A DNA stretch of 41,501 nt, taken from a virus. Where the stretch lies: positions 1-41,501 of the IMG/VR virus record IMGVR_UViG_3300033463_000341, one strand, 5' to 3'. Below, piece by piece: positions 2,517 through 38,383 of the stretch. A program made the translations under genes and the position numbers. Position 1 is the first letter of the stretch, and each line of letters begins with the position of its first letter. The notes under the pieces are model-generated. The model was given only the letters and a program-made list of their open reading frames with translations, had not been told where the DNA came from and searched no databases.

Positions 2517-3929
2517 TTATTTATTAGTTGCAAAATTAATATTATTTTGAACTCCAGAAATTTGTCTTTGTATTAATCTACCGTCCAAATAAACATTTAC
2601 AGCATTTGAGTAATTATCGGCATAATTAGTAAATGGTACATGTCTACTATATTCTAAATCAGCAATAGTTTTGGCATAATTTGTTGTACCAGCTATTGTG
2701 CTTTCTGGTTGAGTTTGAGCATTTATAACATAATCAGGTACTCCAACGTCTTTATAAACTCTTTTCAATAATTTATTATAGGCTTCAATTTCTCTTTGTT
2801 GTATAAGAGCAAAATCTGCACTAGCACCTTCTATAGCTCTTTCAGAAACTTCTATCATATTATTAAGGAAAGATACCATTTCATCATAAGTCATATTTTT
2901 ATTTCCACTTAAATAATCTTCAACTATTTTTGTGGTTTCTTCAATATTTTTTTTCGATTGCTTTTGAGCTCTATCTTCTAAATCATCACGCAATGCTTTT
3001 AATTCTTTAGCTTGTTTTAATGCTTCGGCTAAACCTTTTACTGCAATTGTTGCTACCCAAACTGTACCAATAATTGCCAAAATAGTAGCCAATCCATTTA
3101 ATCCTGTTAAAAGCTGTGAACTACCCATTAATGTACTAATTCCTGACAATATTTTAGCAATGGCAACAGCACCAAATGTAACGCCTAATACAATACCAAC
3201 ATCTTTTATTAAATCTTTATTATCTTTTAAAACAGCGGCAAGTTTTTTTAATTTATTAATAATGCCTTGGTCTAATTCAGGAATATCAATTATTCCATTA
3301 TAACTAGATGTTTTTAAAGCACCAGATTGTTTCCTTATAACATCAAAATCATAAGTTTCAATATTTAGTTGTTTTTGTGCTTTTGCTTGTTTTTGTAATG
3401 CTTTAGCATTGTGTTCGGCAATTTTGTCAACTCCAGTTAATGCTTTTATGAATTCATTAAGATATCCAACGCCTTTTAATATTAAATCGGCAACACCATT
3501 AATTACTGGACCTAAAACATCTCCTAACAAAGACCATATACTTTTTAATTTATTAGCAACTTCTTCATTTTCATTTAAATAAGTGCTACTAGCTTTACTA
3601 ACTATTCCATAAACAGAAGCAATGCCTACCATTCTTAAAGCAAACTTTTTCAAACTATTAGCCATTTTTTTCCAACTTTTATTGCTTGTTTCTTCTAGTT
3701 TGGTTTGCTGTTTTCTTAAACTAATAATTTGATTTGATACTTGTTCTATGTTTTTTCTTAATTGCATTGCTTGATTACTTTGTTCATTAAATCCTTTTTT
3801 TTCTGCCATTGTATTATAATCGTTTATCAAATCATTTATTTTTTCTTCTAAATAACTAATTTGCTCATCAAATGTTTTTGTGTTTATCTCGGTATCAAAT
3901 GTTATTTTTCCATCTGCATCTTTAGTCAT
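2517..3929 (-). CDS. Tail tape measure protein
   Basis: Follows the chaperone pair. Coiled-coil N-terminus and central hydrophobic/Gly-rich segments (GIVLGVTFGAVAIAKILSGISTLMGSSQLL...). The ATG at 3929 has GGAGG 8 nt upstream; the track start at 3938 is a GTG. Confidence 0.8.
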   Translation of the reverse strand: MTKDADGKITFDTEINTKTFDEQISYLEEKINDLINDYNTMAEKKGFNEQSNQAMQLRKNIEQVSNQIISLRKQQTKLEETSNKSWKKMANSLKKFALRMVGIASVYGIVSKASSTYLNENEEVANKLKSIWSLLGDVLGPVINGVADLILKGVGYLNEFIKALTGVDKIAEHNAKALQKQAKAQKQLNIETYDFDVIRKQSGALKTSSYNGIIDIPELDQGIINKLKKLAAVLKDNKDLIKDVGIVLGVTFGAVAIAKILSGISTLMGSSQLLTGLNGLATILAIIGTVWVATIAVKGLAEALKQAKELKALRDDLEDRAQKQSKKNIEETTKIVEDYLSGNKNMTYDEMVSFLNNMIEVSERAIEGASADFALIQQREIEAYNKLLKRVYKDVGVPDYVINAQTQPESTIAGTTNYAKTIADLEYSRHVPFTNYADNYSNAVNVYLDGRLIQRQISGVQNNINFATNK

Positions 3930-4491
3930 TATTTTCACCTCCTATAATTTTATCCCAAAACTCATCAAGTTCTTTTTCTTGTTCCGTTTTTTTGTGCTTT
4001 TTCTTTATTGCTATTCTTTTTTGTAATTCAATAAGTTTTGTTCTTTCTTTTTCATCTTGAATTTCTTGCGGGTCTTTATTCCTAATCTCTCTTATTTGAC
4101 TTATTAAACTATCTTCTGTCAACCCACTTATTAATTCATTATATTCATACCAATGTAAATATTTCATTTCATTAAGATTAATATGATAACATTGTCTTAT
4201 GCTCGTCCTAGTGTCTATTTCATCTTGTAAATAATCATAGTCTATTTCTTCCGTAGGCGTATTTTCTTCTCTGCCACATCTTAAATATTTTATGATTTTT
4301 TCTATAACAATTGGCTTTTCTTCCATATTAAAGCAAACATCTTTTCCAAATATAAGTGTTTCTAAAGCATAATATTTTTCTAACTCCGTTATTTCATCAT
4401 CTTGGATTGCTCTAAAACAAGCAAGCGCAACTCTATAATCGGTATTAATATTGTATATCTTACCATTTATTTCCATTTTAGTAGGATACAT
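3922..4491 (-). CDS. Tail assembly protein, Phage_Gp15-like (Listeria A118 gp15 type)
   Basis: The N-terminus MYPTKMEINGKIYNINTDYRVALACFRAIQDD resembles the Gp15 family as I remember it. Lies directly upstream of the tape measure. Same reading frame as 4492..4932, separated by a single TAA. Confidence 0.6.
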   Translation of the reverse strand: MYPTKMEINGKIYNINTDYRVALACFRAIQDDEITELEKYYALETLIFGKDVCFNMEEKPIVIEKIIKYLRCGREENTPTEEIDYDYLQDEIDTRTSIRQCYHINLNEMKYLHWYEYNELISGLTEDSLISQIREIRNKDPQEIQDEKERTKLIELQKRIAIKKKHKKTEQEKELDEFWDKIIGGENND

Positions 4492-9846: not shown

Positions 9847-10351
9847 AATTTTCCTCCTTTATATAATAACCATAGTTTTGGTCCTTATATACGTTTTTTA
9901 AATATGGATACCTTTGTTTCATTAGTTCATCTGTTAAATCGTCTTGTTTGTGTATTTCATATACATTATCTTCTTCTATTCCTTGTGGGTTTAAATAAGG
10001 TACTGCCACTATCATTTCTTTACACCTATTTAAAGCATATTTTAAGACTTCTTGTGCTTCATTTGCTTCCAGATGCTCTACTACATCGCCAAATATAATA
10101 ATGTCATAATAGTCGTATTTAAAGTCCTTTATATTGACATTATAAACTTTATTATATTTACTTTCTAGATTAAAGTTATCAATGTTTGGTTTAAATACTT
10201 CTACTGCTTCTATATTATTAAAATAATCATGCATATAGTTGTAGTAAGTTCCTTCTCCTGCACCAACGTCTAGTACCTTTGCGTTTCTATCAAAGTTTCT
10301 TTTTAAATAATTTGTTATTTCTGTTTTATAAACTGCATATGATGTTGCCAT
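9815..10351 (-). CDS. Class I SAM-dependent methyltransferase
   Basis: Motif I is VLDVGAGEGTY. The downstream acidic motif is IIIFGDVVEHL. 1-nt overlap with the glycosyltransferase stop. Confidence 0.8.
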   Translation of the reverse strand: MATSYAVYKTEITNYLKRNFDRNAKVLDVGAGEGTYYNYMHDYFNNIEAVEVFKPNIDNFNLESKYNKVYNVNIKDFKYDYYDIIIFGDVVEHLEANEAQEVLKYALNRCKEMIVAVPYLNPQGIEEDNVYEIHKQDDLTDELMKQRYPYLKNVYKDQNYGYYIKEENYEKLFSKSIN

Positions 10352-12078
10352 TATATTTGTCTATACCTCCAATCCTTTAATTCGTCCCATTGTTGATTAA
10401 ACTTCTTTTGTACATATTCTTTGTATTGCTCATTCTTTGTTGTTTTGATGAAATAATACATTTCTCCTAAATGTTTATAAATGCTCATTTCCCACATTGC
10501 TTCACGTTTTGTTGTTACGCTTGTGGTATTACTTCTGTTCCATACGTGAGTTGACTCGTTCAAACAAGTAAAACTTTTTGCCTTTTCACATAACCTATAA
10601 TGTTGTACTCTATCTTCGGCAAGCGTACTTTCTGGGAATAGAGTATCTTTCATTAGTTCTGTTTTAACTACTTTTGTCCATATTGCACATACGTTATCGG
10701 TGAACGCTTGATACATATTTTCAAAGTTTGGTCTAAACGGATATAATCCCTCAACGCCGTTGCTTCCTAATTCAAATCCTAAAAACATTATATCTTCATC
10801 TTCTAAATTATCATTTATATCTTTTAATACGTTTTCGTGTTTTAACCAATCATCACTATCAATGCATACTATATAATCTCCTGTGGCTTCCATTATACCT
10901 ATATTTCTTGTTCCACCATTATATTTTTTAAATGGTACTTTTAATACTTTGTGTCCTTTTAGCATTCTATTTGCTATTTCTAAAGAATTATCTTCACTCA
11001 TATCATCAATAAATATAATTTCATAATTTGTATATGTTTGTTTTAAAACGCTACCCAAGCACTTTTCTAGCCATCTAGCATTATTATAGTTTGGAATTAT
11101 AATACTAAATTTGTAATCATGTTTTGTTACTGGCTCTATTACGTTTAACCATTCTTTTGCATAATCAGGATACTCATACTTAAATCCTTTTTTCAAGTTT
11201 TCTATTGCATCTAAATCTAAATTAGATAAATCTTTCTTTACTACATATCCTTTACCATTAGTCAATTCTTTTATTGCATTTGGAAAATCAGTACACACAC
11301 AAGGTGTTCCTAATATTAAACTTTCATACATTACCATACATTGGCTTTCATAATCTGATAATTGCCATAAGCTATCAGCCCACTTCATATATTTATACGG
11401 ATTATCTTGTTTTCCTAACCATATAATATTATAATCTTTTAATTCTTGTTTTAATTGGTTGCCATATCCTGGATATAAAATATTACTTCCAATTACAACA
11501 AATTGGTAGTCTTTGCCATACTTACTTTCACATTTGTCAAGTACGCCTTTTAATCTAGGATAACCTTTTTGAGGGTCAATTCTACTAACAATTAAGAAAT
11601 TATGTTTTTTCTTTGGTATATCAACTTTTTCTTTTGCAAGTTCTCTTATTTCTTCTGCATCAATTATATTTGGTATAACAACGCAGTCTTTACCTTTTCG
11701 TTCTTTGAACTGTTTACTTGCTTCTTCTGATACTGCCACATATTTTTTAAATGGTATAGTTTCTTCATAGTTTTCATTACTATCTATTAAACATCCATTT
11801 ATTACTTGTATGTAATTATTTTTTCTTGCTTTTACTTTCTTTAAATTATAAACCGCATCATATATAACCCAGTCAAATACTTCATCTTTGCATACATCAA
11901 GATGTCTTACATTACCAATAGTAGCCCATTTTTCAAGCATATCCAAAGGACTATCGTTGCTTGCATAAACAAATGTTATTTCATGACCCTGCTTCTTTAA
12001 ATATTTACCACGAGCATACATTGTTTTTTCTACTCCACCAGTTTCAAATGGTCGAGTATAATACATCGCTATCTTCAT
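10351..12078 (-). CDS. Bifunctional glycosyltransferase (N-terminal GT-B/GT4-like, C-terminal GT-A/GT2)
   Basis: The GT4-like half has ETGGVEK and an E-x7-E motif (YESQCMVMYES). The GT2 half has FSIIIPNYNNARWLEKCLGSVLKQTYTNYEIIFIDDMSEDNS and a DSDD (DxD) motif. The start at 12078 (MKIAMYY) has a GGGTGA RBS. The track's 5' extension would include the promoter -10. Confidence 0.85.
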   Translation of the reverse strand: MKIAMYYTRPFETGGVEKTMYARGKYLKKQGHEITFVYASNDSPLDMLEKWATIGNVRHLDVCKDEVFDWVIYDAVYNLKKVKARKNNYIQVINGCLIDSNENYEETIPFKKYVAVSEEASKQFKERKGKDCVVIPNIIDAEEIRELAKEKVDIPKKKHNFLIVSRIDPQKGYPRLKGVLDKCESKYGKDYQFVVIGSNILYPGYGNQLKQELKDYNIIWLGKQDNPYKYMKWADSLWQLSDYESQCMVMYESLILGTPCVCTDFPNAIKELTNGKGYVVKKDLSNLDLDAIENLKKGFKYEYPDYAKEWLNVIEPVTKHDYKFSIIIPNYNNARWLEKCLGSVLKQTYTNYEIIFIDDMSEDNSLEIANRMLKGHKVLKVPFKKYNGGTRNIGIMEATGDYIVCIDSDDWLKHENVLKDINDNLEDEDIMFLGFELGSNGVEGLYPFRPNFENMYQAFTDNVCAIWTKVVKTELMKDTLFPESTLAEDRVQHYRLCEKAKSFTCLNESTHVWNRSNTTSVTTKREAMWEMSIYKHLGEMYYFIKTTKNEQYKEYVQKKFNQQWDELKDWRYRQI

Positions 12079-12094
12079 TTTATCACCCAGAGTA

Positions 12095-12103
12095 ATTATA
12101 TCA
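12095..12103 (-). promoter_or_regulatory. Extended -10 promoter motif TGATATAAT (class II)
   Basis: The minus strand reads TTTTTATGATATAATTAC immediately after a terminator and 17 nt upstream of the ATG at 12078. Confidence 0.45.
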
Positions 12104-12132
12104 TAAAAATAAAAAGGTGTAAAATACACCTT
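12104..12132 (-). terminator. Intrinsic terminator after gene 12131..12487
   Basis: The minus strand reads AAGGTGT-ATTTT-ACACCTT followed by TTTTATTTTT. The stem overlaps the stop codon. Confidence 0.7.
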
Positions 12133-13728: not shown

Positions 13729-14553
13729 TTAAATAAATTGACTTGATGTACCATATCCACAACCACATCCATTGTTGTTGCAAGTGAATATTGGTGTTCT
13801 ACCATAAACTGGTGTTGATGGTACTGGGCAGTTGCTTAATCTATTGTATAAAGCATCTACTTCTTCAATTTGTCCTTGTCTTAATTGAGCAGTTTGTGCT
13901 AATTGACTTGCTTGTAAATCTTTCATTAAGATTTCTCTTTGAAGGTCTACAATCTTATCGTTTTTAGCATCAATCTTATCTTGGCATAATTGGTCAAGAA
14001 CTCTTTGAACATTAGCAGTTTGGTTAGCAATAATATCTCTTATGCCATTACTTAATGCTTCTCTATCAGCACAGTTTTCACTAATAACAGTTGCTTTTAA
14101 GTCTTGAGTTGCAAGACGATTTTCACAGCAACAGTTCAATAACGAAGTATTTAAACCATAGAAGCCATTAGAAACTGCTGAAGTTATATCTGCTGTACTA
14201 TTGCACAACTGATTAGATAAACCATTTATAGCATCTCTATTGCCTTCTAATTGGTTAGATAAATGTAATGTGTCAAATCCATTGTTAGTGTTATTCATAA
14301 TATCTTTTTGACCATTAGACAACCAAGCAAATCCATTATCGAAACTATTTCCACCAAAGAAACCACCATTACCATTGTTTCCCCAACCACCGAATAATGC
14401 TAATAATAAGATTACCCAAATGAAGTCAGAGCCATAGCCACCAAATCCACCATTACCAAATCCACCCATCATAGGATAAATTGGATAAGCATAACCGGCG
14501 TTGTTGTTAGTTGCTAGGTCAACAGTAGGAACTATTCCTGAATTTCCATTCAT
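13729..14553 (-). CDS. Gly-rich membrane-anchored protein with a Cys-containing coiled-coil ectodomain
   Basis: 274 aa. The N-terminus has GGFGNGGFGGYGSDFIWVILLLALFGGWGNNGNGGFFGG (one TM helix in a Gly-rich context). It then has a CCC triplet (LLNCCCENR), a long Gln-rich helix and a C-terminal CNNNGCGCGYG. Confidence 0.7.
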   Translation of the reverse strand: MNGNSGIVPTVDLATNNNAGYAYPIYPMMGGFGNGGFGGYGSDFIWVILLLALFGGWGNNGNGGFFGGNSFDNGFAWLSNGQKDIMNNTNNGFDTLHLSNQLEGNRDAINGLSNQLCNSTADITSAVSNGFYGLNTSLLNCCCENRLATQDLKATVISENCADREALSNGIRDIIANQTANVQRVLDQLCQDKIDAKNDKIVDLQREILMKDLQASQLAQTAQLRQGQIEEVDALYNRLSNCPVPSTPVYGRTPIFTCNNNGCGCGYGTSSQFI

Positions 14554-14585
14554 TTTTATTCTCCTTTCTATCGGTCGCTAGTAAA

Positions 14586-14626
14586 CTTATGTGAGAATAC
14601 ATAACTAGCATATATTCTCGCATAAG
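14586..14626 (-). promoter_or_regulatory. Long hairpin in the 5' leader of gene 13729..14553
   Basis: 14586-14599 pairs with 14613-14626: 13 of 14 positions are Watson-Crick, with one A-C mismatch on the minus strand and a 13-nt loop. No T-run follows. Confidence 0.4.
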
Positions 14627-14636
14627 GCTACTAACC

Positions 14637-14873
14637 TTATTTTTGTTTATTAAACATAGACATCATATTATCCCAATTTTGTCTTTGTTGTGGGGTAAAG
14701 TTGTTTATTGTTTCATTTAACAAATCTTGTGGATTGTTATTTTTTCTTGCTTCCTGATATTTTTGAAAAGCTTGAGGATTTCTCATCTTTAATTGTTTCT
14801 CCAACTGGCTCATCATATTCTGTGGTATTTGTTGCATTTTGTTTTGTAATAGCATTTGTATTATCCCATTCAT
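14637..14873 (-). CDS. Small Gln/Asn/Met-rich protein
   Basis: 78-aa ORF that reads as a plausible protein (NPQAFQKYQEARKNNNPQDLLNETINNFTPQQRQNWDNMMSMF). Its first 45 codons overlap the 3' end of 14737..15258 in another frame, so the start is uncertain. Confidence 0.5.
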   Translation of the reverse strand: MNGIIQMLLQNKMQQIPQNMMSQLEKQLKMRNPQAFQKYQEARKNNNPQDLLNETINNFTPQQRQNWDNMMSMFNKQK

Positions 14874-15258
14874 TTTGTTTCATCTCTTTCTTTAATTCTT
14901 CAATTTGACCCTTTAAATATTCTATTTGAATGTCTTTTTCGTCTTTTGGTATTATTTCATTTAATTCATAGGTTTTAATTTCACCTTTTAAGTTTTTTAT
15001 CCATACAACAGACATATCTTTACTAAAATATGGTGTATCACCTATAACCATATCTCTTTGCACTTCTTCAAGCGATGTTGCGTATCTTATTACATCTCTA
15101 CTTGTTGGGGCTAATTGAAAGTTTTGCGTTAGATTAGTAGGTTGTGGTTGTGGTTGTTGCATTTGTGCTTTCATTCTTTCCAAATTATTTATTTGCTCAT
15201 TTAATCTATCAATATTTGCTTGTTGATTATATGGGTTAATATAGGGATTATTATACAT
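14737..15258 (-). CDS. Gln/Pro-rich N-terminus protein, unknown function
   Basis: 173 aa (MYNNPYINPYNQQANIDRLNEQINNLERMKAQMQQPQPQP...). The RBS AAGGAGAT is sequestered in a hairpin (see 15266..15291). Confidence 0.65.
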   Translation of the reverse strand: MYNNPYINPYNQQANIDRLNEQINNLERMKAQMQQPQPQPTNLTQNFQLAPTSRDVIRYATSLEEVQRDMVIGDTPYFSKDMSVVWIKNLKGEIKTYELNEIIPKDEKDIQIEYLKGQIEELKKEMKQNEWDNTNAITKQNATNTTEYDEPVGETIKDEKSSSFSKISGSKKK

Positions 15259-15265
15259 TTATTTC

Positions 15266-15291
15266 ATCTCCTTAAATAAATAAAAGGAGAT
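15266..15291 (-). promoter_or_regulatory. RBS-sequestering hairpin upstream of gene 14737..15258
   Basis: The minus strand reads ATCTCCTT-TTATTTATTT-AAGGAGAT. The 3' arm is the SD of the ATG at 15258. The 5' arm lies inside the 17-codon leader ORF. Confidence 0.5.
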
Positions 15292-15325
15292 TATATAACA
15301 AGTGTGTTTTATTACTAAATGTCAT
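15272..15325 (-). CDS. 17-codon leader ORF (MTFSNKTHLLYNLLLFI)
   Basis: Strong SD AAGGAGGTAAAAAAATG. The stop lies in the hairpin loop, and its last codons form the anti-SD arm. Confidence 0.4.
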   Translation of the reverse strand: MTFSNKTHLLYNLLLFI

Positions 15326-15357
15326 TTTTTTACCTCCTTTATACATATTTTATTACA

Positions 15358-15386
15358 AATAAAAAAACATAGTCAGTACGACCATG
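15358..15386 (-). terminator. Intrinsic terminator ending the accessory membrane/regulator operon
   Basis: The minus strand reads CATGGTC-GTACT-GACTATG (one G-U pair) followed by TTTTTTTATTT. Confidence 0.65.
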
Positions 15387-15394
15387 ATATTTTT

Positions 15395-16030
15395 TTAAAT
15401 ATTTAATCTTCCTATTAAAAAATAATAACATTTATCTAGGCATTCCTTTATTCTAGGATTTGGCATATTAAATTCTTCTGCTATTCTTTCATAAGAATAT
15501 CCGTCTATAAATCTTCTTTTATATATTAAATAAGTTTTGGTATCAACTTTTTCTTTTAATAATCTTTCGGCTTCTAGGTATTCATCAGTAATGGCATTAT
15601 ATTTTAAATAATCAATTAAAGGCTGATGCACGCTTTCGTTTTGTGGTTTCCACAATACCAAATCTTTAAAACTTGGACTTATTTCAATTTCAGCTTCTTC
15701 ATCTTCAATATCTGCATTTCCACTTAACAAAAATTTTGTATATACTGTAAAAACACAAGCAACATAAATATTTATATATGTTGAAAGAAATAGAGAACTA
15801 AAAAATAGAACTTGCATCAAAAAACATTTTAACGGTGATTTATAGTGTTTAGCCTTACCCATTATCAATGATAAAGACCAAACCACGATAATCACTAATG
15901 TATTTATTAAAGATTTATTGATAAATAATCCCAAAAGAAAAACCCAAGTTATATTAATCACAACATTGGCAATCAATATAAATATATTATTTGATTTTTC
16001 AAATAAAATACGCTTGAGTTTATCTTTCAT
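15395..16030 (-). CDS. Membrane protein: AgrB-like N-terminal module (H-x2-S-x3-C) fused to a sigma-70 region-4 / ArpU-RinA-like HTH
   Basis: 211 aa with about 4 N-terminal hydrophobic helices. The loop motif KHYKSPLKC (H62, C69) has the spacing of AgrB His77/Cys84. An acidic linker (DIEDEEAEIE) follows, then a C-terminal YLIYKRRFIDGYSYERIAEEFNMPNPRIKECL. Confidence 0.6.
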   Translation of the reverse strand: MKDKLKRILFEKSNNIFILIANVVINITWVFLLGLFINKSLINTLVIIVVWSLSLIMGKAKHYKSPLKCFLMQVLFFSSLFLSTYINIYVACVFTVYTKFLLSGNADIEDEEAEIEISPSFKDLVLWKPQNESVHQPLIDYLKYNAITDEYLEAERLLKEKVDTKTYLIYKRRFIDGYSYERIAEEFNMPNPRIKECLDKCYYFLIGRLNI

Positions 16031-16033
16031 AAA

Positions 16034-16081
16034 TTATTCTCCTTCAACGCTGTCGCAAAGACCCCACATAGTGTTAAACAT
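16034..16081 (-). CDS. 15-codon micro-ORF (MFNTMWGLCDSVEGE)
   Basis: The SD GGAAGGAGG lies 8 nt upstream, inside the last codons of 16087..16641. Its own 3' end (GAAGGAGAA) is the SD of 15395..16030. Found by hand. Confidence 0.4.
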   Translation of the reverse strand: MFNTMWGLCDSVEGE

Positions 16082-16086
16082 TATAA

Positions 16087-16641
16087 CTACCTCCTTCCTA
16101 TAAATACTCCATAAGTTATCCAAAAATGAAGTATTACAAAAGTTATGATAGTTAATGTCGCACTAAAGCCTCGTATAGTGACACTTTTTATAAATTTAAA
16201 ATCATGTTTATTCCAAAATTTATTGTAAAATTTTTCTATGTTATTAAGTTTTTCTTTAATAAATATTATAAATAAAATTAAAACAATATTAGCAATGATA
16301 ATAGTAATTATTTTAATTCCAAATAGTAAAATACATATCATATTTACTATTCCCATCAGCAAAAATGATATTATATATGTTATTAAATCTGTTATTCTTC
16401 CTTTTTTACCATACAAAACTTTTATATTTAAGTAAAATAAAATAATAAAAAGTAAGTCAGCATTAATGTTTAAATCAAATTTTGCTATGTTTTGGATTAT
16501 AAAATATTGCATTATTGTTAAAATAATAAAAATCATTCTTTTTTTACTTAATTTTTTGGTAAAAATAATAAATAAGCATAAATATATTGGCTGTAATATA
16601 CACCCTAAAATATTACCAAGTTGTAAAATTCCACTACTCAT
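16087..16641 (-). CDS. Polytopic membrane protein (about 6 TM helices)
   Basis: 184 aa, almost entirely hydrophobic helices separated by short Lys-rich loops. RBS AAGGTGAAAAAATG. Confidence 0.75.
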   Translation of the reverse strand: MSSGILQLGNILGCILQPIYLCLFIIFTKKLSKKRMIFIILTIMQYFIIQNIAKFDLNINADLLFIILFYLNIKVLYGKKGRITDLITYIISFLLMGIVNMICILLFGIKIITIIIANIVLILFIIFIKEKLNNIEKFYNKFWNKHDFKFIKSVTIRGFSATLTIITFVILHFWITYGVFIGRR

Positions 16642-16650
16642 TTTTTCACC

Positions 16651-16998
16651 TTATTTTTTTAATATGTCAGTTTTTATAACTTTCCATGTTTCTATTTTTT
16701 TGGCAAGTTTATGAATGTAATCATCTCCACCAAGTTTTTCATATATTTTTAATAAATTTAACCAGCCTTTATAAATGTAATCAGGTATTTGCCCTATCTC
16801 ACTATAAACAAAGAAAGTATTTGTTAAATTGCTTTGTAATAGCATTAACAAAGCCATATTTTGAACTTTTTCATTTTCTTCTTTGCTTTCTATTGTTTTT
16901 TTATATTCTTTGGCTTTTCCAGATAAGTAACCAAATAATCCAGTTGTAACCATTCCAACAATTGTTAAAATAGTCTTTAAAATAATTTCCTTTGCCAT
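16651..16998 (-). CDS. Single-pass membrane-anchored protein (115 aa)
   Basis: The start at 16998 (MAKEIILKTILTIVGMVTTGLFGYL) has GAAAGG upstream. The track's 21-codon extension would begin upstream of the TGATATAAT promoter. Confidence 0.6.
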   Translation of the reverse strand: MAKEIILKTILTIVGMVTTGLFGYLSGKAKEYKKTIESKEENEKVQNMALLMLLQSNLTNTFFVYSEIGQIPDYIYKGWLNLLKIYEKLGGDDYIHKLAKKIETWKVIKTDILKK

Positions 16999-17032
16999 AA
17001 TAATTACCTTTCCATTACCCTTACTGATTTTA

Positions 17033-17041
17033 ATTATATCA
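17033..17041 (-). promoter_or_regulatory. Extended -10 promoter motif TGATATAAT (class II)
   Basis: The minus strand reads TTATTTTAATGATATAATTAAAA, 35 nt upstream of the ATG at 16998. Confidence 0.4.
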
Positions 17042-17081
17042 TTAAAATAAAAAAAAGACAAGTTGTGCCTTTTTTATATGA

Positions 17082-17486
17082 TTATTTCATTATATTTTCT
17101 ATTTTTTGCCATTCTTCTTCACTAATAATGCCTCTATCATATTTTTCTTGTAAGTTATAATAACATTGTTTTAGGTATCTATTGTTGTGTTCAAAATAAA
17201 TTGGATTTGTATATTTTGCATAATTATCAAAATCTTCTTCACAAAACTCTAATATTTCATCATAATATTTATTTTGATGTTTTATTCCTCTAATAGTCAT
17301 TTGAGTATCAATTTTAGAAACATAATTCATAAAATATTCTTTACTGTATTTCATAACATAACTAACTAACCTATGTTTCAATGTGCCTTTCTCCCATTGT
17401 CTTTTAATAGCAATGCACTCACGCCATTGACTTACCAACATATCTTTTGGTAATACTGGAATTAATTTATAATGCCACAATCTCAT
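17082..17486 (-). CDS. TIGR02328-type protein related to pyrimidine-dimer DNA glycosylases (T4 DenV-like)
   Basis: The N-terminus MRLWHYKLIPVLPKDMLVSQWRECIAIKRQW matches the MRLWH..LI..LP...L..Q.REC signature as I remember it. 134 aa. Confidence 0.5.
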   Translation of the reverse strand: MRLWHYKLIPVLPKDMLVSQWRECIAIKRQWEKGTLKHRLVSYVMKYSKEYFMNYVSKIDTQMTIRGIKHQNKYYDEILEFCEEDFDNYAKYTNPIYFEHNNRYLKQCYYNLQEKYDRGIISEEEWQKIENIMK

Positions 17487-17498
17487 ATTTTATTCCTC

Positions 17499-17846
17499 CT
17501 AATTATTCTCAATAATAACCCATGGTTCTTTTTTGCCACTTGCTAACCAACCTGTTTGACCTTCATCATATATAACTTTATACCAGTTATAACTATTACC
17601 TTCGTGATATTCAACAGCCTTATATTGTTCACCTTTGTACACTTTTTTAATTACATCACTATCCAAATCAATTTCAGGTCTTAAATTAATAAACTCATTG
17701 TCAATTGTTATAGTATATATAACTTGATTTTCAAGTTTTTTAGCCTTTCTTTTTAAATCATTAGCGTAACTTACACGCCCAATTAAAGCACCAATAAATA
17801 ATGCAATTACTATGAAGCCAAACATTCTTAATTTTTCATTTTTCAT
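17499..17846 (-). CDS. Membrane-anchored bacterial SH3-domain protein
   Basis: N-terminal TM helix (FGFIVIALFIGALIG). The C-terminus YKGEQYKAVEYHEGNSYNWYKVIYDEGQTGWLASG is SH3b-like. Confidence 0.65.
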   Translation of the reverse strand: MKNEKLRMFGFIVIALFIGALIGRVSYANDLKRKAKKLENQVIYTITIDNEFINLRPEIDLDSDVIKKVYKGEQYKAVEYHEGNSYNWYKVIYDEGQTGWLASGKKEPWVIIENN

Positions 17847-17869
17847 TATTTTCTCCTCCTTCTATATAC

Positions 17870-17898
17870 ATATTAGCACTTTATAAAAAATATGTCAA
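17870..17898 (-). promoter_or_regulatory. Sigma-A-type promoter (class I): TTGACA-N17-TAATAT
   Basis: The minus strand reads AAAAAAGTATTGACA TATTTTTTATAAAGTGC TAATAT, about 25 nt upstream of the RBS of 17499..17846. It has the same A-tract/-35 context as the early promoters. Confidence 0.6.
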
Positions 17899-17935
17899 TA
17901 CTTTTTTAATACTTTTTTAATATTTAATATAAAAA

Positions 17936-17963
17936 TACAAAAAAAGAAGCGTGGTGGCGCTTC
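17936..17963 (-). terminator. Strong intrinsic terminator of the ncRNA unit
   Basis: The minus strand reads GAAGCG-CCACCA-CGCTTC followed by TTTTTTTGTATTTTT. Confidence 0.8.
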
Positions 17964-18403
17964 AAAAGGTTTTACATTAGTGCCTATTTTATAAGCACTG
18001 GACTAATGATATATTTACACATTTTAGGCTCGCTAGCCTCCCTACTTTTAGAACCTCTAAACAAGATACACTCTCGAGATAGACCTTATTCTCTTTTCTA
18101 AAGTATTGTAAATAGGTCGATTATTTATATCATCAGTACACTACCTATAAAAGATAGTGCTATATGTAGTTAGCGTCTACATATACACAAAAAAACGATA
18201 TAGACAACCCCTGTAAACTATATCTAAACAGGAGATTGAATAGTGCCTATTATAAGCACCACATAGAATAGATAAAAGATACGAACCATAGGGTTTAAGC
18301 CTACGCCTTTTCTATCAGTTGAGTTTAAATCAACTTGCATTATCTACTCTATGTGCTACCTACAATGGTAACACTCGAAAATGCAATTAGTTTTCGCTAA
18401 TGC
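17936..18403 (-). ncRNA. Candidate large structured non-coding RNA (~470 nt), class unknown
   Basis: ORF-free stretch, relatively G+C-rich, bounded by its own promoter and terminator. Many helices are readable by eye, including a 16-bp long-range stem and an H-type pseudoknot. G-U pairs occur only in the minus-strand reading. Confidence 0.6.
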
Positions 18404-18409
18404 AATTAT

Positions 18410-18418
18410 ATTATATCA
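18410..18418 (-). promoter_or_regulatory. Extended -10 promoter motif TGTGATATAAT (class II) for the ncRNA
   Basis: The minus strand reads GATGTGATATAATATAAT. The motif overlaps the TGA stop of 18416..19636. Confidence 0.5.
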
Positions 18419-19636
18419 CATCAATTTACTTTTTGCAACTTTTTTATATCCACTAACTTTCATTCTTTGTGCTTTAGTAGGTAAACCACTTATTTCACTT
18501 AATTGTTTATACTTATTTGTAAGAATTCTTATATTTTCTTGTGACTTTGCTATAAGTGGCTTATTATCACTTGCTTTGGCAAGTATTTGAATATCTTTTT
18601 GTTCTCTAACGGCACGTTCAATATTTCTTTGCATTTGTGTGCCTTCATAATTAGTATAGTGTTGTCCTTCAAATTCAAAACCATCATCATTTTTTTTAAT
18701 TATTTCTTTAAGTTCTTTATCTGTATATTCAGGTTCACTAACACCTAACACAATGCTAAATATGTAGTGATAACAATTCATTTCACTAATAGGACGATAG
18801 CCATTTTTATGGTCATGGTCTAAAGTATAAGTGTTGCCCTTATAGTCTTTTGCCTCAAGCCCACTATTTAACTTTTTATATTCTTCTATGCTAAATTGTC
18901 TACCTTGTACTTTTTCGTGGTCAATAGCCGGATTAGAGTGAACAGATATTTCATAACCATCAGCACCTATTTCTTCGCCAATAATTTTTTGATTTTCGTT
19001 ATGTAATTCCCTCAAATCACTTTTAAGTTCCATTCTAATAGCACTATCTAATCGCATACTTCTACCACTAGCGTAGTTTATAGTCCTTAAACCACTTCCA
19101 CCGACTTGTTTTAATATACCACTCATAGCTTGGTCAAATGTTTCTTTACCTTGCCCTACATTTAATAATGCAGTATCTAGCAATTCATTGTAAACATCTC
19201 TTAACCCCATAAATTTGCCATTTATAGTATAACCAAGCACATTTGAACGTGTAAAATCATACATTTTATTTTTAACTATATTAGACAATGCCATAGTTTG
19301 CGTTTTTAATGCCATATTTTGCTCGAAAGGTGTAAAAGGTATATCTTTATACTTGTAGAACTTTTCGTAGAATAATTGGTCATTTTTTGCATAATTATAG
19401 AATATATTATCTATATCAGCAATGTCTAAATTAGTATATTTGGCAATTTGTTTAACTATATCTTCGTATTTGCCACCATATTTAAGTATTTGTGCCAGTT
19501 GTTGAGCTTGGCTTGGCGTTAATTCACTTATTTTTTTAATAGAAGAACCAATACTTTCTAAAAACGTGGTATTGGCTTGTTCTATTCTATCAATTAATCT
19601 TTCAATAACTTGTTCTATTTGATTTTCAGTTATCAT
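18416..19636 (-). CDS. Head morphogenesis / minor capsid protein (SPP1 gp7 / Mu F-like)
   Basis: 406 aa, immediately after the portal gene. Size and position are typical of MuF-like proteins. Confidence 0.7.
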   Translation of the reverse strand: MITENQIEQVIERLIDRIEQANTTFLESIGSSIKKISELTPSQAQQLAQILKYGGKYEDIVKQIAKYTNLDIADIDNIFYNYAKNDQLFYEKFYKYKDIPFTPFEQNMALKTQTMALSNIVKNKMYDFTRSNVLGYTINGKFMGLRDVYNELLDTALLNVGQGKETFDQAMSGILKQVGGSGLRTINYASGRSMRLDSAIRMELKSDLRELHNENQKIIGEEIGADGYEISVHSNPAIDHEKVQGRQFSIEEYKKLNSGLEAKDYKGNTYTLDHDHKNGYRPISEMNCYHYIFSIVLGVSEPEYTDKELKEIIKKNDDGFEFEGQHYTNYEGTQMQRNIERAVREQKDIQILAKASDNKPLIAKSQENIRILTNKYKQLSEISGLPTKAQRMKVSGYKKVAKSKLM

Positions 19637-24130: not shown

Positions 24131-24517
24131 TTAATACCATCTCCTTAAATACTTTTCTTTAATTAAAATCTTACCTTTTGAATTAAGCTCATCTGCATTG
24201 TGATATTCAAAATCTTGTAGCATAAACTCAATGGCTTCCCTTTGTTCTATATCAGGCTCGTGTAATTGTCTATTTATTATCATAAACTCTTTATTTAATA
24301 AATCATAAATATGTTTATCTCTATCTTCAATAATGTGTAAATAATTATGTGCAAAATCCATGAGCAAAGCTCCATTTGATATTTCTTTTCTTCCACCATC
24401 TACTCGTTTTACAATGTGATGAAATGTTAAATCTTTCTTAACTATTTTATAATTTAACCAGTCTAAATCACTATATGGCTTGTATATATGTAACATAGCT
24501 CTTGTTATTTCTTTCAT
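24131..24517 (-). CDS. HNH endonuclease (terminase-associated type)
   Basis: 128 aa. LTFHHIVKRVDGGRKEISNGALLMDFAHNYLH contains the H-N-H core. HNH proteins near terminase genes are common in cos-type phages. Confidence 0.7.
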   Translation of the reverse strand: MKEITRAMLHIYKPYSDLDWLNYKIVKKDLTFHHIVKRVDGGRKEISNGALLMDFAHNYLHIIEDRDKHIYDLLNKEFMIINRQLHEPDIEQREAIEFMLQDFEYHNADELNSKGKILIKEKYLRRWY

Positions 24518-24916
24518 TTATTTACCTCCTATTTTTGTTTTTCTTCTAGGTTTGCATAACCCATTTTTCCATGCATGTATCAAATTTTCACTATAAGTAC
24601 ACCACTCTAAATTATTTACATTGTTATTCAATTTATTTCCATCTTTATGATTAACACAAGGCTTGTTTTCTGAATTTGGTATAAAAGTTTCTGCCACAAG
24701 TCTATTAACTCTATGTAATTTCTTTTTACTATTTTTACATAATGTTGCTTCTAAATAACCACTTTTATTTATAAAGAAAGACATATTTCTGCCTTTAACT
24801 ATTCTTTTTGAATTATGTTTAGCATTTACTATTCTATCTTTACTTTTTATATTTCCATAATTAGATATTTCATATAAACTTTCATAATCTTTTATTGGTT
24901 TCCATTCTTCTTCCAT
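24518..24916 (-). CDS. HNH homing endonuclease (NUMOD4 + HNH_3 type)
   Basis: EWKPIKDYESLYEISNYGNIKS (NUMOD4-like) and VNHKDGNKLNNNVNNLEW (HNH). Paralogous to 29530..30072. Confidence 0.8.
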   Translation of the reverse strand: MEEEWKPIKDYESLYEISNYGNIKSKDRIVNAKHNSKRIVKGRNMSFFINKSGYLEATLCKNSKKKLHRVNRLVAETFIPNSENKPCVNHKDGNKLNNNVNNLEWCTYSENLIHAWKNGLCKPRRKTKIGGK

Positions 24917-27965: not shown

Positions 27966-29165
27966 TTATTCACTTGCTTTAAAGTTGTATATTGGTTTAA
28001 TTATTTTTTCAACCTCAACAGTATCTTTAATGTGTTCAATTATTTCTTCCATTGGTTTATATACCATAGGAGCTTCATCTATTGTTTCTTCATTTACTGA
28101 TGTTGTATAAATACCATTCATAGAATTTTTATAATCTTCCATATTTAAAGTTTGTCTTGCAATGTTTCTTGACATTGTTCTTCCTGCTCCGTGTGGTGCT
28201 GAATAATTCCAATCTTCATTGCCTTTCCCAATTCCTATAATGCAACCATCTCTCATATTCATAGGTATAATTACTTTTTCACCTTTTCTAGCGGATATTG
28301 CGCCTTTGCGAACTATATTATCTTCAAAATTAATATAGTTATGAATACATTGAAAGTATGGAACACTATCTAAGCCACCAAACCCCATATTGTATAAAAT
28401 AATGTTTGCTATACTACTTCTATTTACCACAGCAAAATTTTGACATTTTTTCATATCGTGTAAATATTCTTTTCTATCTTTACCTTCCAAATAACACAAA
28501 TCTTTAGGTAGTTTTGTTTTGCCGTTATATTTATTATTTATATCAATTAATGCTTGTTGTATTTCTTTTTCTTTGCCTTGTTCTTTATATTCTTTAATTA
28601 TTCTATTTTTTTCTTCTTGCATTTCCATTTTATAAGAACAATATTCTATTGCTTTATTTTGATATATTTCAGCAACTTGTTTTCCTAAATTTCTTGAACC
28701 TGTATGAATAACTAAATATTTATTATTTTCATCATCAGCATCAATTTCAATAAAATGATTACCGCCACCTAAAGTTCCTAATGACTTTTCTAACCAATTA
28801 TCTTTATTTTTTAACTCTTTGTAACAATATAAATCTTTAAAATCAACATCATTTTTATTTTCTTGATGTACATTCATTCCACTAGGTATATATTTCCTTA
28901 TGATTTCATCTAATTTATCAAAATCAATATCAATATTACCTAATTCAACACATAACATTCCACAACCAATATCTACACCAACTATATTTGGTATTACTTT
29001 ATCGCCTAAATTACCTGTAAAACCAATTACACAACCTGCTCCTGCGTGAACATCAGGCATAATTCTTACTTTACAATTTTTAAATGCTTCTTGTTCTAAT
29101 AATAAGTCTATTTGTTCTTTAGCACTTTGTTCTATATTGTTTGTAAATATTTTTAAATCTTTCAT
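27966..29165 (-). CDS. rtcB: RtcB-family RNA ligase (3'-phosphate/5'-hydroxyl)
   Basis: 399 aa with the full RtcB motif set: MPDVHAGAGCVIG, GGGNHFIEI, HTGSRNLG, CIHNY and SAPHGAGR. Confidence 0.92.
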   Translation of the reverse strand: MKDLKIFTNNIEQSAKEQIDLLLEQEAFKNCKVRIMPDVHAGAGCVIGFTGNLGDKVIPNIVGVDIGCGMLCVELGNIDIDFDKLDEIIRKYIPSGMNVHQENKNDVDFKDLYCYKELKNKDNWLEKSLGTLGGGNHFIEIDADDENNKYLVIHTGSRNLGKQVAEIYQNKAIEYCSYKMEMQEEKNRIIKEYKEQGKEKEIQQALIDINNKYNGKTKLPKDLCYLEGKDRKEYLHDMKKCQNFAVVNRSSIANIILYNMGFGGLDSVPYFQCIHNYINFEDNIVRKGAISARKGEKVIIPMNMRDGCIIGIGKGNEDWNYSAPHGAGRTMSRNIARQTLNMEDYKNSMNGIYTTSVNEETIDEAPMVYKPMEEIIEHIKDTVEVEKIIKPIYNFKASE

Positions 29166-29168
29166 CTC

Positions 29169-29552
29169 TTATTCATCTCCTTTGCTTTTAAGATAATCTA
29201 TTATTTCATTTTGCTTTAATTCTATTTTTTTAAGCATTTTATGTAAATTATGTTCATCAATATTATTGTCTTTAAGTAACGATTGTAGTTCATCATAAAT
29301 ATCTAATTTTTCAGGTATTTTCTTTTCTTCTTCTAGGATTTCTACTTCATTGTCTAAAATATTAAAAGCTTCATAATCAACACAAGATGATAAATAACCA
29401 TACAATTCAGTTTTTTCATCATAACATCTATAATCTATTACAGTTTCTTGTTCAAAATATTCATAAATAAAATCTTTATATTTAATTTTTTTTGGCACTT
29501 CTTCTCCATTTGCTATTTTATTTAATAAATCAATTACACGAATTGTTTTCAT
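29169..29552 (-). CDS. Hypothetical acidic protein (127 aa)
   Basis: RBS TGGAGGTTTGTAGATG inside the 3' end of the HNH gene. Confidence 0.6.
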   Translation of the reverse strand: MKTIRVIDLLNKIANGEEVPKKIKYKDFIYEYFEQETVIDYRCYDEKTELYGYLSSCVDYEAFNILDNEVEILEEEKKIPEKLDIYDELQSLLKDNNIDEHNLHKMLKKIELKQNEIIDYLKSKGDE

Positions 29553-30072
29553 CTACAAACCTCCATATATAACCATTAGCAGTTTTTCTTTTACCATTAC
29601 AACACATATTTATATTACTAGCACTATAACCTAATTCATAATAAGGTGAATAACTGCTATTCCATATTCTTATTAATTCACCACTATGTTTATCTAATTG
29701 TTTTATCTTTCTAGGTTTTAATCTAGGTCTTTTTAATTTTAATCTATATGCTTCACTTTCGTTATAACCATAATCACACCATTCTAAATTGTCTAATGAA
29801 TTATTTAACTTATTCCCATCTTTGTGATTTATACAAGGTAAATTATTAGGGTTAGGAATAAATGCTTGTGCTAATAACTTATGTATTGTTCTACTATACA
29901 CTTTTCCACAATTCATAAGATTAACTATTTTATAACCTTTATTAGAAATAGAACCTTTTAAAATAATTTCTTTTGTACCTTTAAAAGTATTTGTACTTTT
30001 TACTTCACCATTACGATTTATATAATAACCTTCAAAATTTCTAATAGGTTTCCACTCATCTATTATTTTCAT
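29530..30072 (-). CDS. HNH homing endonuclease (NUMOD4 + HNH_3 type), free-standing with its own promoter
   Basis: The start at 30072 (MKIIDEWKPIRNFEGYYINRNGEVKS) has AGGAGGTATAAAATG. HNH core is INHKDGNKLNNSLDNLEW. The track's 18-codon extension covers the promoter. Confidence 0.8.
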   Translation of the reverse strand: MKIIDEWKPIRNFEGYYINRNGEVKSTNTFKGTKEIILKGSISNKGYKIVNLMNCGKVYSRTIHKLLAQAFIPNPNNLPCINHKDGNKLNNSLDNLEWCDYGYNESEAYRLKLKRPRLKPRKIKQLDKHSGELIRIWNSSYSPYYELGYSASNINMCCNGKRKTANGYIWRFVDENNSCN

Positions 30073-30096
30073 TTTATACCTCCTCTTGTTAATACT

Positions 30097-30126
30097 ATTA
30101 TAATACTTATTTAATACTATTGTCAA
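30097..30126 (-). promoter_or_regulatory. Sigma-A-type promoter (class I): TTGACA-N18-TATAAT
   Basis: The minus strand reads AAAAAAGTATTGACA ATAGTATTAAATAAGTAT TATAAT. The -35 element overlaps the stop of 30123..30575. Confidence 0.6.
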
Positions 30127-37603: not shown

Positions 37604-38383
37604 TTATTTTGTTAAAATATCAGTTGCTGTATAAATACGATTTTTTAATTCTTTATTTATTTCTTCTAATTGTTCAATTTGTAATTTTAAATCTTTATTA
37701 ATTAAAAGTTCTTTTTCATAAAGTTTCTTATAGTCAGTTACTGGTTCTTCTTCTGGAGAAAGTTCATCTTCTGATACCCAACCTATATCTCCACTTGTAT
37801 TGTATGGATAAGGAACTGGTCTATCATCAATTTTTCTAGTAATAATTGTGTGTTTGTCAGTGACTGTTTTACCAGTCTTACCACCATAGCAATTTTCATA
37901 TAGCACACCATTAACAATAACTTTATCGCCAATATTATATTTTAATTCGGCAGGTTGATATTCAACATAATTATATTCTTCTGGGTCAATATAATCATTT
38001 TTAGCATAATCAAATATTCCTAAATGTAAATGAACACCTGTTGCCATACCAGTTTTACCTGTTATACCTATTAATGTGTTGTTATCTACTTTTTGTCCTT
38101 TTTTAACATAAAATTCCTTTAAATGATAATGACACATCTTTAAATTTAATCTTGGATATTCAATCCAAACATAATTACCACATGAATTGTTTGTACTTGC
38201 TTCCAATACTACACCATCTTCAACAGCATATTGATTATATGGTTTTGAATGTGTGCCATAATCTACTCCTTTATGAAATGAACTTGTTGTGCCTGATGGC
38301 GTTTTTATTGGCTCACGAGGTCCAAATTTATCGGTAATATAATAGTCATTATATTCTTTAAATACCTTTTCAATAGCTTTCAT
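37604..38383 (-). CDS. Endolysin: M23 (LytM-type) metallopeptidase + SH3-like domain + C-terminal coiled coil
   Basis: HKGVDY (HxxxD) and GVHLHLG (HxH) motifs. The middle YNIGDKVIVNGVLYENCYGG...GDIGWVSEDEL is SH3-like. 1-nt overlap with the holin stop. Confidence 0.85.
   Translation of the reverse strand: MKAIEKVFKEYNDYYITDKFGPREPIKTPSGTTSSFHKGVDYGTHSKPYNQYAVEDGVVLEASTNNSCGNYVWIEYPRLNLKMCHYHLKEFYVKKGQKVDNNTLIGITGKTGMATGVHLHLGIFDYAKNDYIDPEEYNYVEYQPAELKYNIGDKVIVNGVLYENCYGGKTGKTVTDKHTIITRKIDDRPVPYPYNTSGDIGWVSEDELSPEEEPVTDYKKLYEKELLINKDLKLQIEQLEEINKELKNRIYTATDILTK

Follow-up and report, generated by a model that had tools for sequence, protein, structure and literature searches.

We describe here a compact three-gene cassette of an uncultured, Clostridia-type phage in the IMG/VR virus record IMGVR_UViG_3300033463_000341, whose 41,501 nucleotides (nt), analyzed at full length, are called the window below. 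Profile comparisons and a structure model show that the last gene of the cassette encodes a 211-amino-acid (aa) protein in which a predicted four-helix core from the AgrB peptidase/cyclase family, which retains the His/Cys dyad, is fused to a domain of the sigma-70 region 4/Ltr type. This gene is preceded by one for a 184-aa protein with six transmembrane (TM) helices and by a micro-open reading frame (micro-ORF) for a 15-aa peptide, all three head to tail on the minus strand (Table 1). The Shine-Dalgarno (SD) sequence of the micro-ORF falls within the final codons of the 184-aa gene, 8 nt from the ATG, and a GAAGGAG within the final codons of the micro-ORF lies 8 nt from the ATG of the 211-aa gene. 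These coordinates and SD positions bear out the ORFs and the tight coupling proposed in a preliminary description of this DNA, whose overall interpretation is largely supported by our analysis. Every related locus with sufficient flanking DNA has its three genes in the same order (23 micro-ORFs). In two loci, a standalone AgrB-like ORF (L025, 761-1084; L029, 2100-2429) sits between the micro-ORF and the fusion gene that it adjoins.

A truncated AgrB core fused to a region 4-type domain

A homologue search covering 5.8 billion proteins returned 121 homologues of the 211-aa protein, which split into two groups, one of ~211 aa (69-87% identity) and one of ~189 aa that differs strongly in the N-terminal half and is almost the same in the C-terminal half. 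A profile search of 1.84 billion representatives widened the family to 144 clusters at 50% identity, 98 of them with E values of ≤1e-10, most members being 185-220 aa long and matched across both domains. Six homologues carried a precomputed label for the Pfam AgrB family, PF04647, and upon rescanning, homologues at 75-79% identity scored 24.6-27.4 bits, above the gathering score of 23. The matched region spans protein residues ~18-108 and positions ~27-125 of the 185 in the hidden Markov model (HMM), with starts at 26/27 and ends at 108-127. PF04647 was found at an E value of ≤1 in 12 of the 37 close homologues and at ≤0.01 in 41 of 86 diverse representatives (best, 5e-10). When the family profile was compared by hhalign with the annotated AgrB of the Clostridioides phage phiCDHM1, 82 columns aligned with an E value of 1.5e-4 (residues 42-132 of 197 in the phiCDHM1 protein), placing R..G..HYKxxxxC over R...GG.HARSNRLC and thereby matching His with His, Cys with Cys, and the upstream Arg and Gly.

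In an alignment of 86 family representatives with a mean column identity of only 19%, H62 and C69 were the sole invariant columns. Both residues are also invariant in 37/37 close homologues, and the His-to-Cys spacing of 7 is kept in 78 of the 86 representatives. The catalytic dyad of AgrB is His77/Cys84 in Staphylococcus aureus (PMC10482373). The preliminary description had drawn attention to the loop KHYKSPLKC and to its His, Ser, and Cys; H62 and C69 proved invariant in 86/86 sequences, and S65 is not conserved. Relatives above the gathering score, the alignment to phiCDHM1 AgrB, and the invariant dyad together sustain the relation to AgrB that had been read from this loop and place the N-terminal domain with AgrB at the family level, where, judged by these profiles, the 211-aa protein is a truncated member of the AgrB superfamily.

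The AlphaFold2 (AF2) model of this protein (predicted local distance difference test [pLDDT], 72.5) agrees with the earlier count of about four N-terminal TM helices and places them at residues 16-39, 41-57, 66-86, and 88-102. The helices form two hairpins, with the H62 loop joining helices 2 and 3. Since the N terminus and the H62 loop are rich in Lys, the positive-inside rule would put both the dyad and the C-terminal helix-turn-helix (HTH) domain in the cytoplasm, and in the model the linker leaves the membrane at the same face as the dyad. The end of the AgrB-like domain is marked by a conserved S-G-x-A-D-I motif. No solved AgrB structure was found by profile or sequence in the PDB copy searched, the query being an S. 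aureus AgrB sequence, and Foldseek searches with the whole fusion model gave sigma region 4 matches only.

The linker that follows is acidic in the subfamily of the window and 14 residues shorter in the ~189-aa subfamily, from which the acidic stretch is absent; the acidic linker highlighted in the preliminary description thus holds for the window subfamily and is not an essential feature. Beyond it, the C-terminal 75 residues form a confident helical bundle (pLDDT, 83-91), which Foldseek matched to the region 4 domains of SigD, SigR, and SigL with template modeling scores (TMt) of 0.6-0.8 and a root mean square deviation (rmsd) of ~2 Å (3vfz_B, TMt 0.81, rmsd 1.8; 5fgm, 0.74; 3hug, 0.6-0.64). 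These matches had probabilities of up to 1.00, yet E values of 0.06-0.4. Pfam and PHROGs scans of the window protein gave weak Sigma70_r4 matches and nothing else (Sigma70_r4_2, E value of 0.012; region 4 HMMs, 15.7 and 14.5 bits, below the gathering scores of 24-26). Sigma70_r4-type matches were obtained for 29/37 close homologues and, in the wider family, for a minority of members (Sigma70_r4, best 9e-7; DUF1492, two members, best 1.3e-3); one member has a Cro/C1 HTH in place of the sigma region 4 type. The weak HMM matches and the fold comparison agree with the region 4-type HTH proposed earlier, and the modeled C-terminal domain has the sigma-70 region 4 fold. The four Ltr families are ~100-aa late activators of Gram-positive phages, LtrA corresponding to Sigma70_r4 and LtrB to DUF1492, and are located just upstream of the promoter that they serve (PMC3753634). 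The “sigma factor” encoded beside agrC in phiCDHM1 was considered as a relative of the HTH and found to be unrelated.

Both domains also occur on their own, as standalone four-helix AgrB-like proteins of 103-117 aa with HYKxxxxC (P0168, P0186, P0210, P0231, and P0233), which stop a few residues past S-G-x-A-D-I, and as HTH proteins of 83-108 aa that stand alone and are homologues of the C-terminal domain (P0204, P0215, P0222, and P0243). The existence of these split forms shows that the two domains are separable partners.

No member of the fusion family was found among 50,697 INPHARED genomes (tblastn with the fusion protein and three distant representatives), a megablast search with positions 14500-18500 returned no known phage or plasmid element, and the family is absent from PHROGs v4. 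The possibility of a defense system was dropped, there being no PADLOC match to the cassette. The fused AgrB-HTH architecture likewise has no prior description in the literature searched, coverage of which was incomplete; with respect to these four sources, the preliminary description's remark that it knew of no such system holds. The family, with at least 144 clusters at 50% identity in uncultured Clostridia phages, is common in gut or rumen-type metagenomes and absent from cultured phage collections.

A conserved micro-ORF and its codivergence with two membrane proteins

All related loci with upstream DNA (23/23) contain an ATG-initiated ORF of 12-23 codons with a strong SD between the genes for the six-TM and the AgrB-like protein(s). 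Among nine close loci, the proportion of synonymous differences (pS) is 0.78, near saturation, and that of nonsynonymous differences (pN) is 0.13. With this pN/pS ratio of 0.17, the micro-ORF is under purifying selection, and the conservation on which the preliminary description had made its proposal depend was thus found. M1, F2, T4, W6, G7, C9, D10, G14, and E15 are fixed among the nine loci, and positions 5 and 11-13 are free. The terminal Gly-Glu is retained in L004, L015, L017, and L019, where 50-100 nt precede the next gene, and is therefore not merely the SD of that gene; in these loci its codons belong to a hairpin that is followed by a new promoter. More precisely, in the ~189-aa subfamily and L004 the micro-ORF stops inside a hairpin, GGAGAATAA-TTGA-TTTATTCTCC, with a T-run (L017, 4896-4990; L019, 340-430; L004, ~3890-3995), and an extended -10 element (TGTTATAAT/TGTTATACT) follows 5' of the fusion gene, the hairpin overlapping the -35 position. 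As predicted from these signals, peptide and enzyme are separate transcription units there.

The micro-ORF product had been introduced as a Cys peptide, which is true of the window and not of several distant cassettes. Six sampled cassettes lack Cys, namely, L020/L021 (MNWPGKWFWGIKK), L022 (MWWPGKLFWGVR), L023 (MWDSWFWYLDVDDGE), L024 (MKFSFLKMLWGDFDSFFKKISKK), L028 (MPWWKIIWGNPLELIKKLK), and L031 (MDTWFGLGSADGE), and the conserved Cys was accordingly rejected as a universal thiolactone nucleophile. All 23 peptides, including that of L030 (MLWCFAIFGNSDSGE), nevertheless fit one pattern: a short N-terminal tail, a Ser, Thr, Cys, or Lys, four hydrophobic or aromatic residues, and a charged tail. 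Examples are MFN[TMWGL]CDSVEGE in the window, MLW[CFAIF]GNSDSGE in L030, MWD[SWFWY]LDVDDGE in L023, and MPWW[KIIWG]NPLELIKKLK in L028. AgrD consists of a 24- to 25-aa amphipathic N-terminal leader, the autoinducing peptide (AIP) core, and a 14- to 15-aa charged tail (PMC10482373). The peptides described here are 12-23 aa long and have no leader and tails of 2-12 residues, with a core-plus-tail layout retained; as a lead, this layout may represent the AIP core and tail of an AgrD without its N-terminal leader. In an alternative register, the ring would start from the conserved Cys, with CDSVE as the ring and GE as the tail.

For the 184-aa protein, the AF2 model (pLDDT, 86.6; predicted template modeling score, 0.79) contains six TM helices, in agreement with the earlier estimate, and one amphipathic helix. 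Its 35 detectable homologues are 173-187 aa long, none with a Pfam domain, and share a cytoplasmic motif between TM5 and TM6, W143-N-x7-K152-S-x-T155-x-R157, in which W143, K152, T155, and R157 are invariant. The protein belongs to no Pfam, NCBIfam, PHROG, or PADLOC family, its model has no fold neighbor in PDB or BFVD (an orphan fold), and hhalign found its family to be unrelated to the fusion family. Identities as an AgrC sensor, an AgrB half, or an MroQ/CPBP protease were rejected at hhalign probabilities of 0.1-1.5.

The six-TM protein is the fastest-evolving protein of the cassette, with 41-60% identity versus 71-91% for the fusion protein at the same loci. Between L017 and the window, the HTH is 89% identical, the AgrB-like domain 29%, and the six-TM protein 33%, and the peptide is different. 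These comparisons show that the six-TM protein, the peptide, and the AgrB-like domain diverge together while the HTH stays conserved. Such joint replacement argues that the three interact.

Downstream element, operon, and genome context

Straight after the fusion stop codon, all close and several distant loci carry cATAGTCGTACTGACTATg, a run of seven T residues, and ATTTGTAATAAAAT (15386-15347 in the window), a 40-nt element that is almost invariant among loci whose proteins are 30-50% identical. Its hairpin is terminator-like (15386-15368), and the CTGACT of the 3' arm resembles a -35 hexamer and lies 18 nt before TAAAAT; CTGAC-N17-21-TAWAAT is unique in the genome. The 13-mer AGTCGTACTGACT occurs exactly once per locus in 13 loci, always at this site, where the window has GGTCGTACTGACT, and the window contains a single copy of the related 14-mer GTCGTACTGACTAT. 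In L024 and L031, ATAGTCGTACTAGA persists in a different local hairpin context, L024 having a separate upstream terminator-like hairpin. We regard the element as a candidate operator with a regulated promoter, at which the HTH may act.

In all 11 loci examined (15274-15340 in the window; the equivalent place in L001-L017), the leader that follows folds into one long hairpin (AAAGGAGG.../...CCTCCTTT) with a T-rich run, after which the next gene (173 aa in the window) follows with its SD and its ATG, the latter at 15258 in the window. The leader sequence varies among these loci, and the per-sequence folds, compared with shuffles, gave z scores of -1.7 to -6.9; RNAalifold on a MAFFT alignment gave a poor consensus because loop lengths differ. 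The leader hairpin is terminator-like, and the genes beyond it are expected to depend on read-through or antitermination. The leader of the window also holds a 17-codon ORF (15272-15325), and an ORF of 16-17 codons, M..SKT[HR]L...LLLFI, is present in the leaders of the window, L005, L011, L015, and L017 and not in those of L001-L003. The block itself (13729-15258; 173, 78, and 274 aa in the window) is syntenic with the cassette, also in L017-L024, and encodes a Tyr/Asn-rich coiled-coil protein of ~150-177 aa, a ~75-aa protein, and a Gly/Cys-rich TM protein of ~240-274 aa (phrog_16490). This synteny is maintained despite differing upstream context (tape measure/XhlA in L020 and L024; a cI-like gene in L029), and the block is a possible regulated target.

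Upstream, the promoter-like site at 17898-17870, together with the terminator-like hairpin at 15386-15368, leads us to place the cassette at the close of a six-gene operon, of which the site is the probable start. The remaining three genes encode a TM-SH3 protein, a Pyr_excise glycosylase, and a one-TM phrog_4105 protein. The first (17499-17846) specifies a 115-aa protein whose N-terminal TM helix is accompanied by a bacterial SH3 domain such as endolysins have in their cell wall-binding modules, without a catalytic domain. The second (17082-17486; Pyr_excise, E value of 1.4e-11) is a DenV-type pyrimidine dimer glycosylase gene that is also close to the cassette in L017. The 116-aa product of the third has a weak Holin_LLH match as well and is a frequent neighbor of the cassette, with homologues 5' of it in L005, L007, L011, L016, and L017. 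Between the minor head gene and this operon lie ~570 nt without a convincing ORF (17847-18415); Rfam and tRNA scans of the window, this region included, returned no match.

The window carries a 127-bp terminal direct repeat (1-127 and 41375-41501) and, on sequence grounds, is a phage genome of ~41.4 kb that is complete and circularly permuted or terminally redundant. Its GC content is 27.6%, the minus strand carries nearly all ORFs of ≥90 aa and every assigned gene, and the portal protein is ≤35% identical to anything in INPHARED. The genes are ordered as replication, terminase, portal, minor head, ~9 kb of accessory genes that include the cassette, and major capsid. A role of the cassette as the primary lysis module was discarded, a holin and an M23 endolysin being encoded elsewhere (37604-38721). 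Among the window ORFs scanned, we found no integrase and no kinase or LytTR domain, small ORFs being covered in part. Accessory genes that are unusual in a small phage encode an RtcB RNA ligase (27966-29165; E value of 3e-132) and a 592-aa double glycosyltransferase (GtrB-like; 10351-12129), besides the Pyr_excise protein. There are also HNH/NUMOD-type homing endonuclease genes at 24131-24916 and 29530-30126, the latter matching NUMOD4 and HNH_3 and the former (24518-24916) assigned by reading of the sequence alone.

Table 1. Features of the cassette and its surroundings in the window
Feature	Position	Strand	Evidence
184-aa six-TM protein, cassette gene 1	16087..16641	(-)	ORF call; AF2 model
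Micro-ORF MFNTMWGLCDSVEGE, 15 aa, SD GGAAGGAGG at 16090-16098	16034..16081	(-)	ORF call; 23/23 loci
211-aa fusion protein	15395..16030	(-)	
Four-helix AgrB-like membrane domain, residues 1-108 of 211-aa protein	15707..16030	(-)	HMM, hhalign, AF2
H62 codon	15845-15847	(-)	
C69 codon	15824-15826	(-)	
Low-confidence linker, residues 103-135	15626..15724	(-)	AF2 pLDDT <50 at 109-130
Sigma-70 region 4/Ltr-type HTH, residues 136-211 + stop	15395..15625	(-)	HMM, Foldseek
40-nt conserved element 3' of fusion gene, hairpin CATGGTC-GTACT-GACTATG + T7	15347..15386	(-)	Scan + locus comparison
TAGTCGTACTGACTA, sequence associated with conserved element	15347-15386		
Leader hairpin AAAGGAGG...CTCCTTT + T-rich run, terminator-like	15274..15340	(-)	Per-sequence folds
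116-aa protein (136 aa from TTG at 17061), one N-terminal TM helix	16651..17001	(-)	phrog_4105, E 7.6e-10
Promoter-like site TTGACA-17-TAATAT with TG extension	17870..17898	(-)	Consensus scan alone
Terminator-like hairpin 5' of promoter-like site	17946-17963		Consensus scan
M23 endolysin	37604-38383		
Holin	38383-38721		

Interpretation and relation to known systems

We propose, with a confidence evenly divided for and against, that the cassette is a compact phage-borne agr relative rebuilt without kinase or response regulator. The micro-ORF peptide would be a leaderless AgrD, made in the cytoplasm and reaching the H62/C69 site at the cytoplasmic face of the membrane. There, C69 would attack the bond after the hydrophobic pentad and free the charged tail (CDSVEGE, or GE if the ring starts at Cys9), and a side chain nucleophile (Thr, Ser, or Cys; Lys in one subfamily) would close a five-residue ring, as in autoinducing peptides. 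The six-TM protein could be the third specificity partner, as exporter or receptor, and the activity of the tethered HTH would be set by the membrane module, according to whether this is occupied, acylated, or cleaved at the linker, which emerges beside the active site. Its most likely DNA target would be the conserved motif and promoter directly downstream, from which transcription would pass the terminator hairpin into the block syntenic with the cassette (173, 78, and 274 aa, onward). In a phage in which no integrase was detected, the likely use would be to tune a late or accessory block to infected-cell density or to the time since infection. Peptide processing by the dyad, the role of the six-TM protein, control through the HTH, and the downstream output are what we infer from these comparisons, and the module might serve in peptide production, sensing, or proteolytic release. 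A bolder version, in which a single-polypeptide synthase with transcriptional output, leaderless precursors of 12-23 residues, Lys lactams in one subfamily, a six-TM protein replacing AgrC, and leader read-through into a conserved phage gene block make up a self-contained viral quorum or timing circuit, seems to us somewhat unlikely. It would be a third kind of phage communication, besides arbitrium and host quorum-sensing receptors that phages have captured, and its precursors would be the shortest AgrD-like genes known.

Several observations weigh against an agr relative. We know of no lactam chemistry in AgrB, which the Lys-type peptides would require. The window protein has no PF04647 match at an E value of ≤1 and stays below the gathering score of 23 bits; it retains roughly the middle half of AgrB, lacking ~40 residues at the N-terminal and ~65 at the C-terminal end, and in place of a full-length AgrB (~190 aa and six helices, with the N-terminal region and the C-terminal third) the AF2 model has four helices. 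Canonical AgrB recognition requires the AgrD leader and a tail of 14-15 residues (PMC10482373), both absent here. The ring register was derived after the sequences had been seen and is therefore a lead and not a result, and with the nucleophile plus four residues as the ring, the conserved Cys of the GE-type peptides lies outside it. Nothing points to export or extracellular sensing of the peptide: the six-TM protein has no detectable relation to any transporter in Pfam, NCBIfam, and fold searches, and its family matches phiCDHM1 AgrC with an hhalign probability of 0.1. The region 4 assignment combines subthreshold HMM scores with a fold match at weak E values, and the downstream motif could be kept simply as the terminator or promoter of an essential operon.

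Four other explanations have to be set against these data. An intracellular proteolytic switch with no cell-to-cell signal, in which the AgrB-like domain would cut its own linker after helix 4 and free an Ltr-type activator, with the micro-peptide setting the time of release as a competing substrate or as a cofactor, is in our view unlikely. Such cleavage would suit a linker that emerges at the membrane face of the dyad in the AF2 model and an S-G-x-A-D-I motif kept at the domain boundary, soon after which the standalone four-TM forms end, but the linker after ADI is not conserved, having lost 14 residues in the ~189-aa subfamily, and we know of no AgrB that cleaves itself. Split HTH proteins exist and no receptor kinase was found among the phage ORFs scanned, as this switch would predict, whereas it leaves the covariation of the six-TM protein and the peptide unexplained.

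The covariation of the membrane parts with the peptide would be accounted for by a membrane-bound one-component peptide sensor similar to BcrR or CylR1/CylR2, in which the AgrB-like helices merely bind the peptide, with His and Cys serving in binding, the six-TM protein exports it, sensing occurs from outside or within the membrane, and the HTH is active while tethered. Four TM helices joined to an HTH in the AF2 model and a strongly hydrophobic, aromatic peptide are also in keeping with it. However, His and Cys as the sole invariant residues of 86 sequences at 19% column identity are the signature of a catalytic dyad and not of a variable-ligand pocket, which makes this sensor quite unlikely.

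We consider it very unlikely that the cassette is a bacteriocin-like or RiPP (ribosomally synthesized and posttranslationally modified peptide) toxin system whose AgrB-like domain matures an antimicrobial peptide, with the six-TM protein as exporter or immunity protein and the HTH as autoregulator: the conserved motif has no autoregulatory copy upstream of the operon, searches turned up no signature of an ABC or other transporter, and the HTH is the best-conserved part, although short Trp-rich peptides are often membrane-active and a fast-evolving polytopic neighbor is typical of immunity proteins. Finally, that the micro-ORF is a translational coupling or leader device whose peptide has no function of its own is highly improbable, since, for all that in the window type its stop region serves the next gene as SD and in the ~189-aa subfamily forms a hairpin, the peptide is kept at saturated synonymous sites, across a 50- to 100-nt gap, and with the same physicochemical pattern in distant cassettes of unrelated nucleotide sequence.

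The agr relative that we favor would matter for several reasons. To our knowledge, agr, the model of peptide quorum sensing in Firmicutes, always acts via a kinase and a response regulator; with the enzyme wired straight to a DNA-binding domain, an AgrB-type module could itself act as a signal transducer. The recognition rules of AgrB are still debated, and a four-helix domain with a 15-residue candidate substrate would offer a natural minimal AgrB. If the reading is right, the cassette would be a peptide-based decision circuit new to phage biology, in a phage without a detected integrase.

Compared with the staphylococcal/clostridial agr system, the cassette shares a homologous membrane peptidase core whose invariant His-x6-Cys dyad lies at the cytoplasmic face, a small adjoining precursor gene, and a peptide built of a short N-terminal tail, a five-residue segment with a hydrophobic end, and a C-terminal tail that is charged. 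As in the agr specificity groups, variable synthase, peptide, and receptor positions are combined with a conserved output. The cassette nonetheless fails as a canonical agr locus: its AgrB is not full length, the leader and long tail of AgrD are absent, and neither AgrC nor AgrA was found. Its AgrB part covers HMM positions ~27-125 of 185 only, the peptide lacks the 24- to 25-aa amphipathic leader and has a tail of 2-12 instead of 14-15 residues, Thr, Ser, Cys, or Lys may act as nucleophile, and the peptide is encoded upstream of the enzyme and not downstream of it. In place of the AgrC kinase and the AgrA LytTR regulator, a DNA-binding domain is fused to the enzyme. The Clostridioides phage phiCDHM1 (HG531805; PMC3901668) likewise has phage-borne agr-type genes in a Clostridia phage, in its case as the separate genes to which the preliminary description had referred: agrB is full length (197 aa), AgrD has 37 aa and both leader and tail, AgrC is a kinase, and none is joined to an HTH.

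Arbitrium (AimP/AimR/AimX) also pairs a phage-encoded short peptide with a phage-encoded DNA-binding receptor. It differs in that AimR is a soluble TPR receptor, that AimP is Sec secreted, cut outside, and reimported, and that it governs lysogeny, whereas no integrase was found in the window phage. BcrR (an HTH with four TM helices, which senses bacitracin), CylR1/CylR2, and SdpI/SdpR are kinase-free membrane regulators responsive to peptides, in which a small polytopic module reads the peptide and directly controls an HTH protein, in split and fused versions. They have no sequence relation to the cassette, include no AgrB-type enzyme among their membrane modules, and differ from it in domain order and HTH class. 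Last, the proteins of the Ltr superfamily (RinA/ArpU, LtrA, and LtrB; PMC3753634) are soluble, stand-alone, and encoded upstream of terS, whereas the cassette domain is tethered to a membrane enzyme and encoded downstream of terS, terL, and portal, with a terminated leader coming next. Both, however, have a domain of ~80-100 residues related to sigma-70 region 4, and both have its gene directly 5' of the promoter for a gene block, late in the case of Ltr. The layout of regulator gene, site and promoter, terminated leader, and gene block in the cassette is as it is for late regulators.

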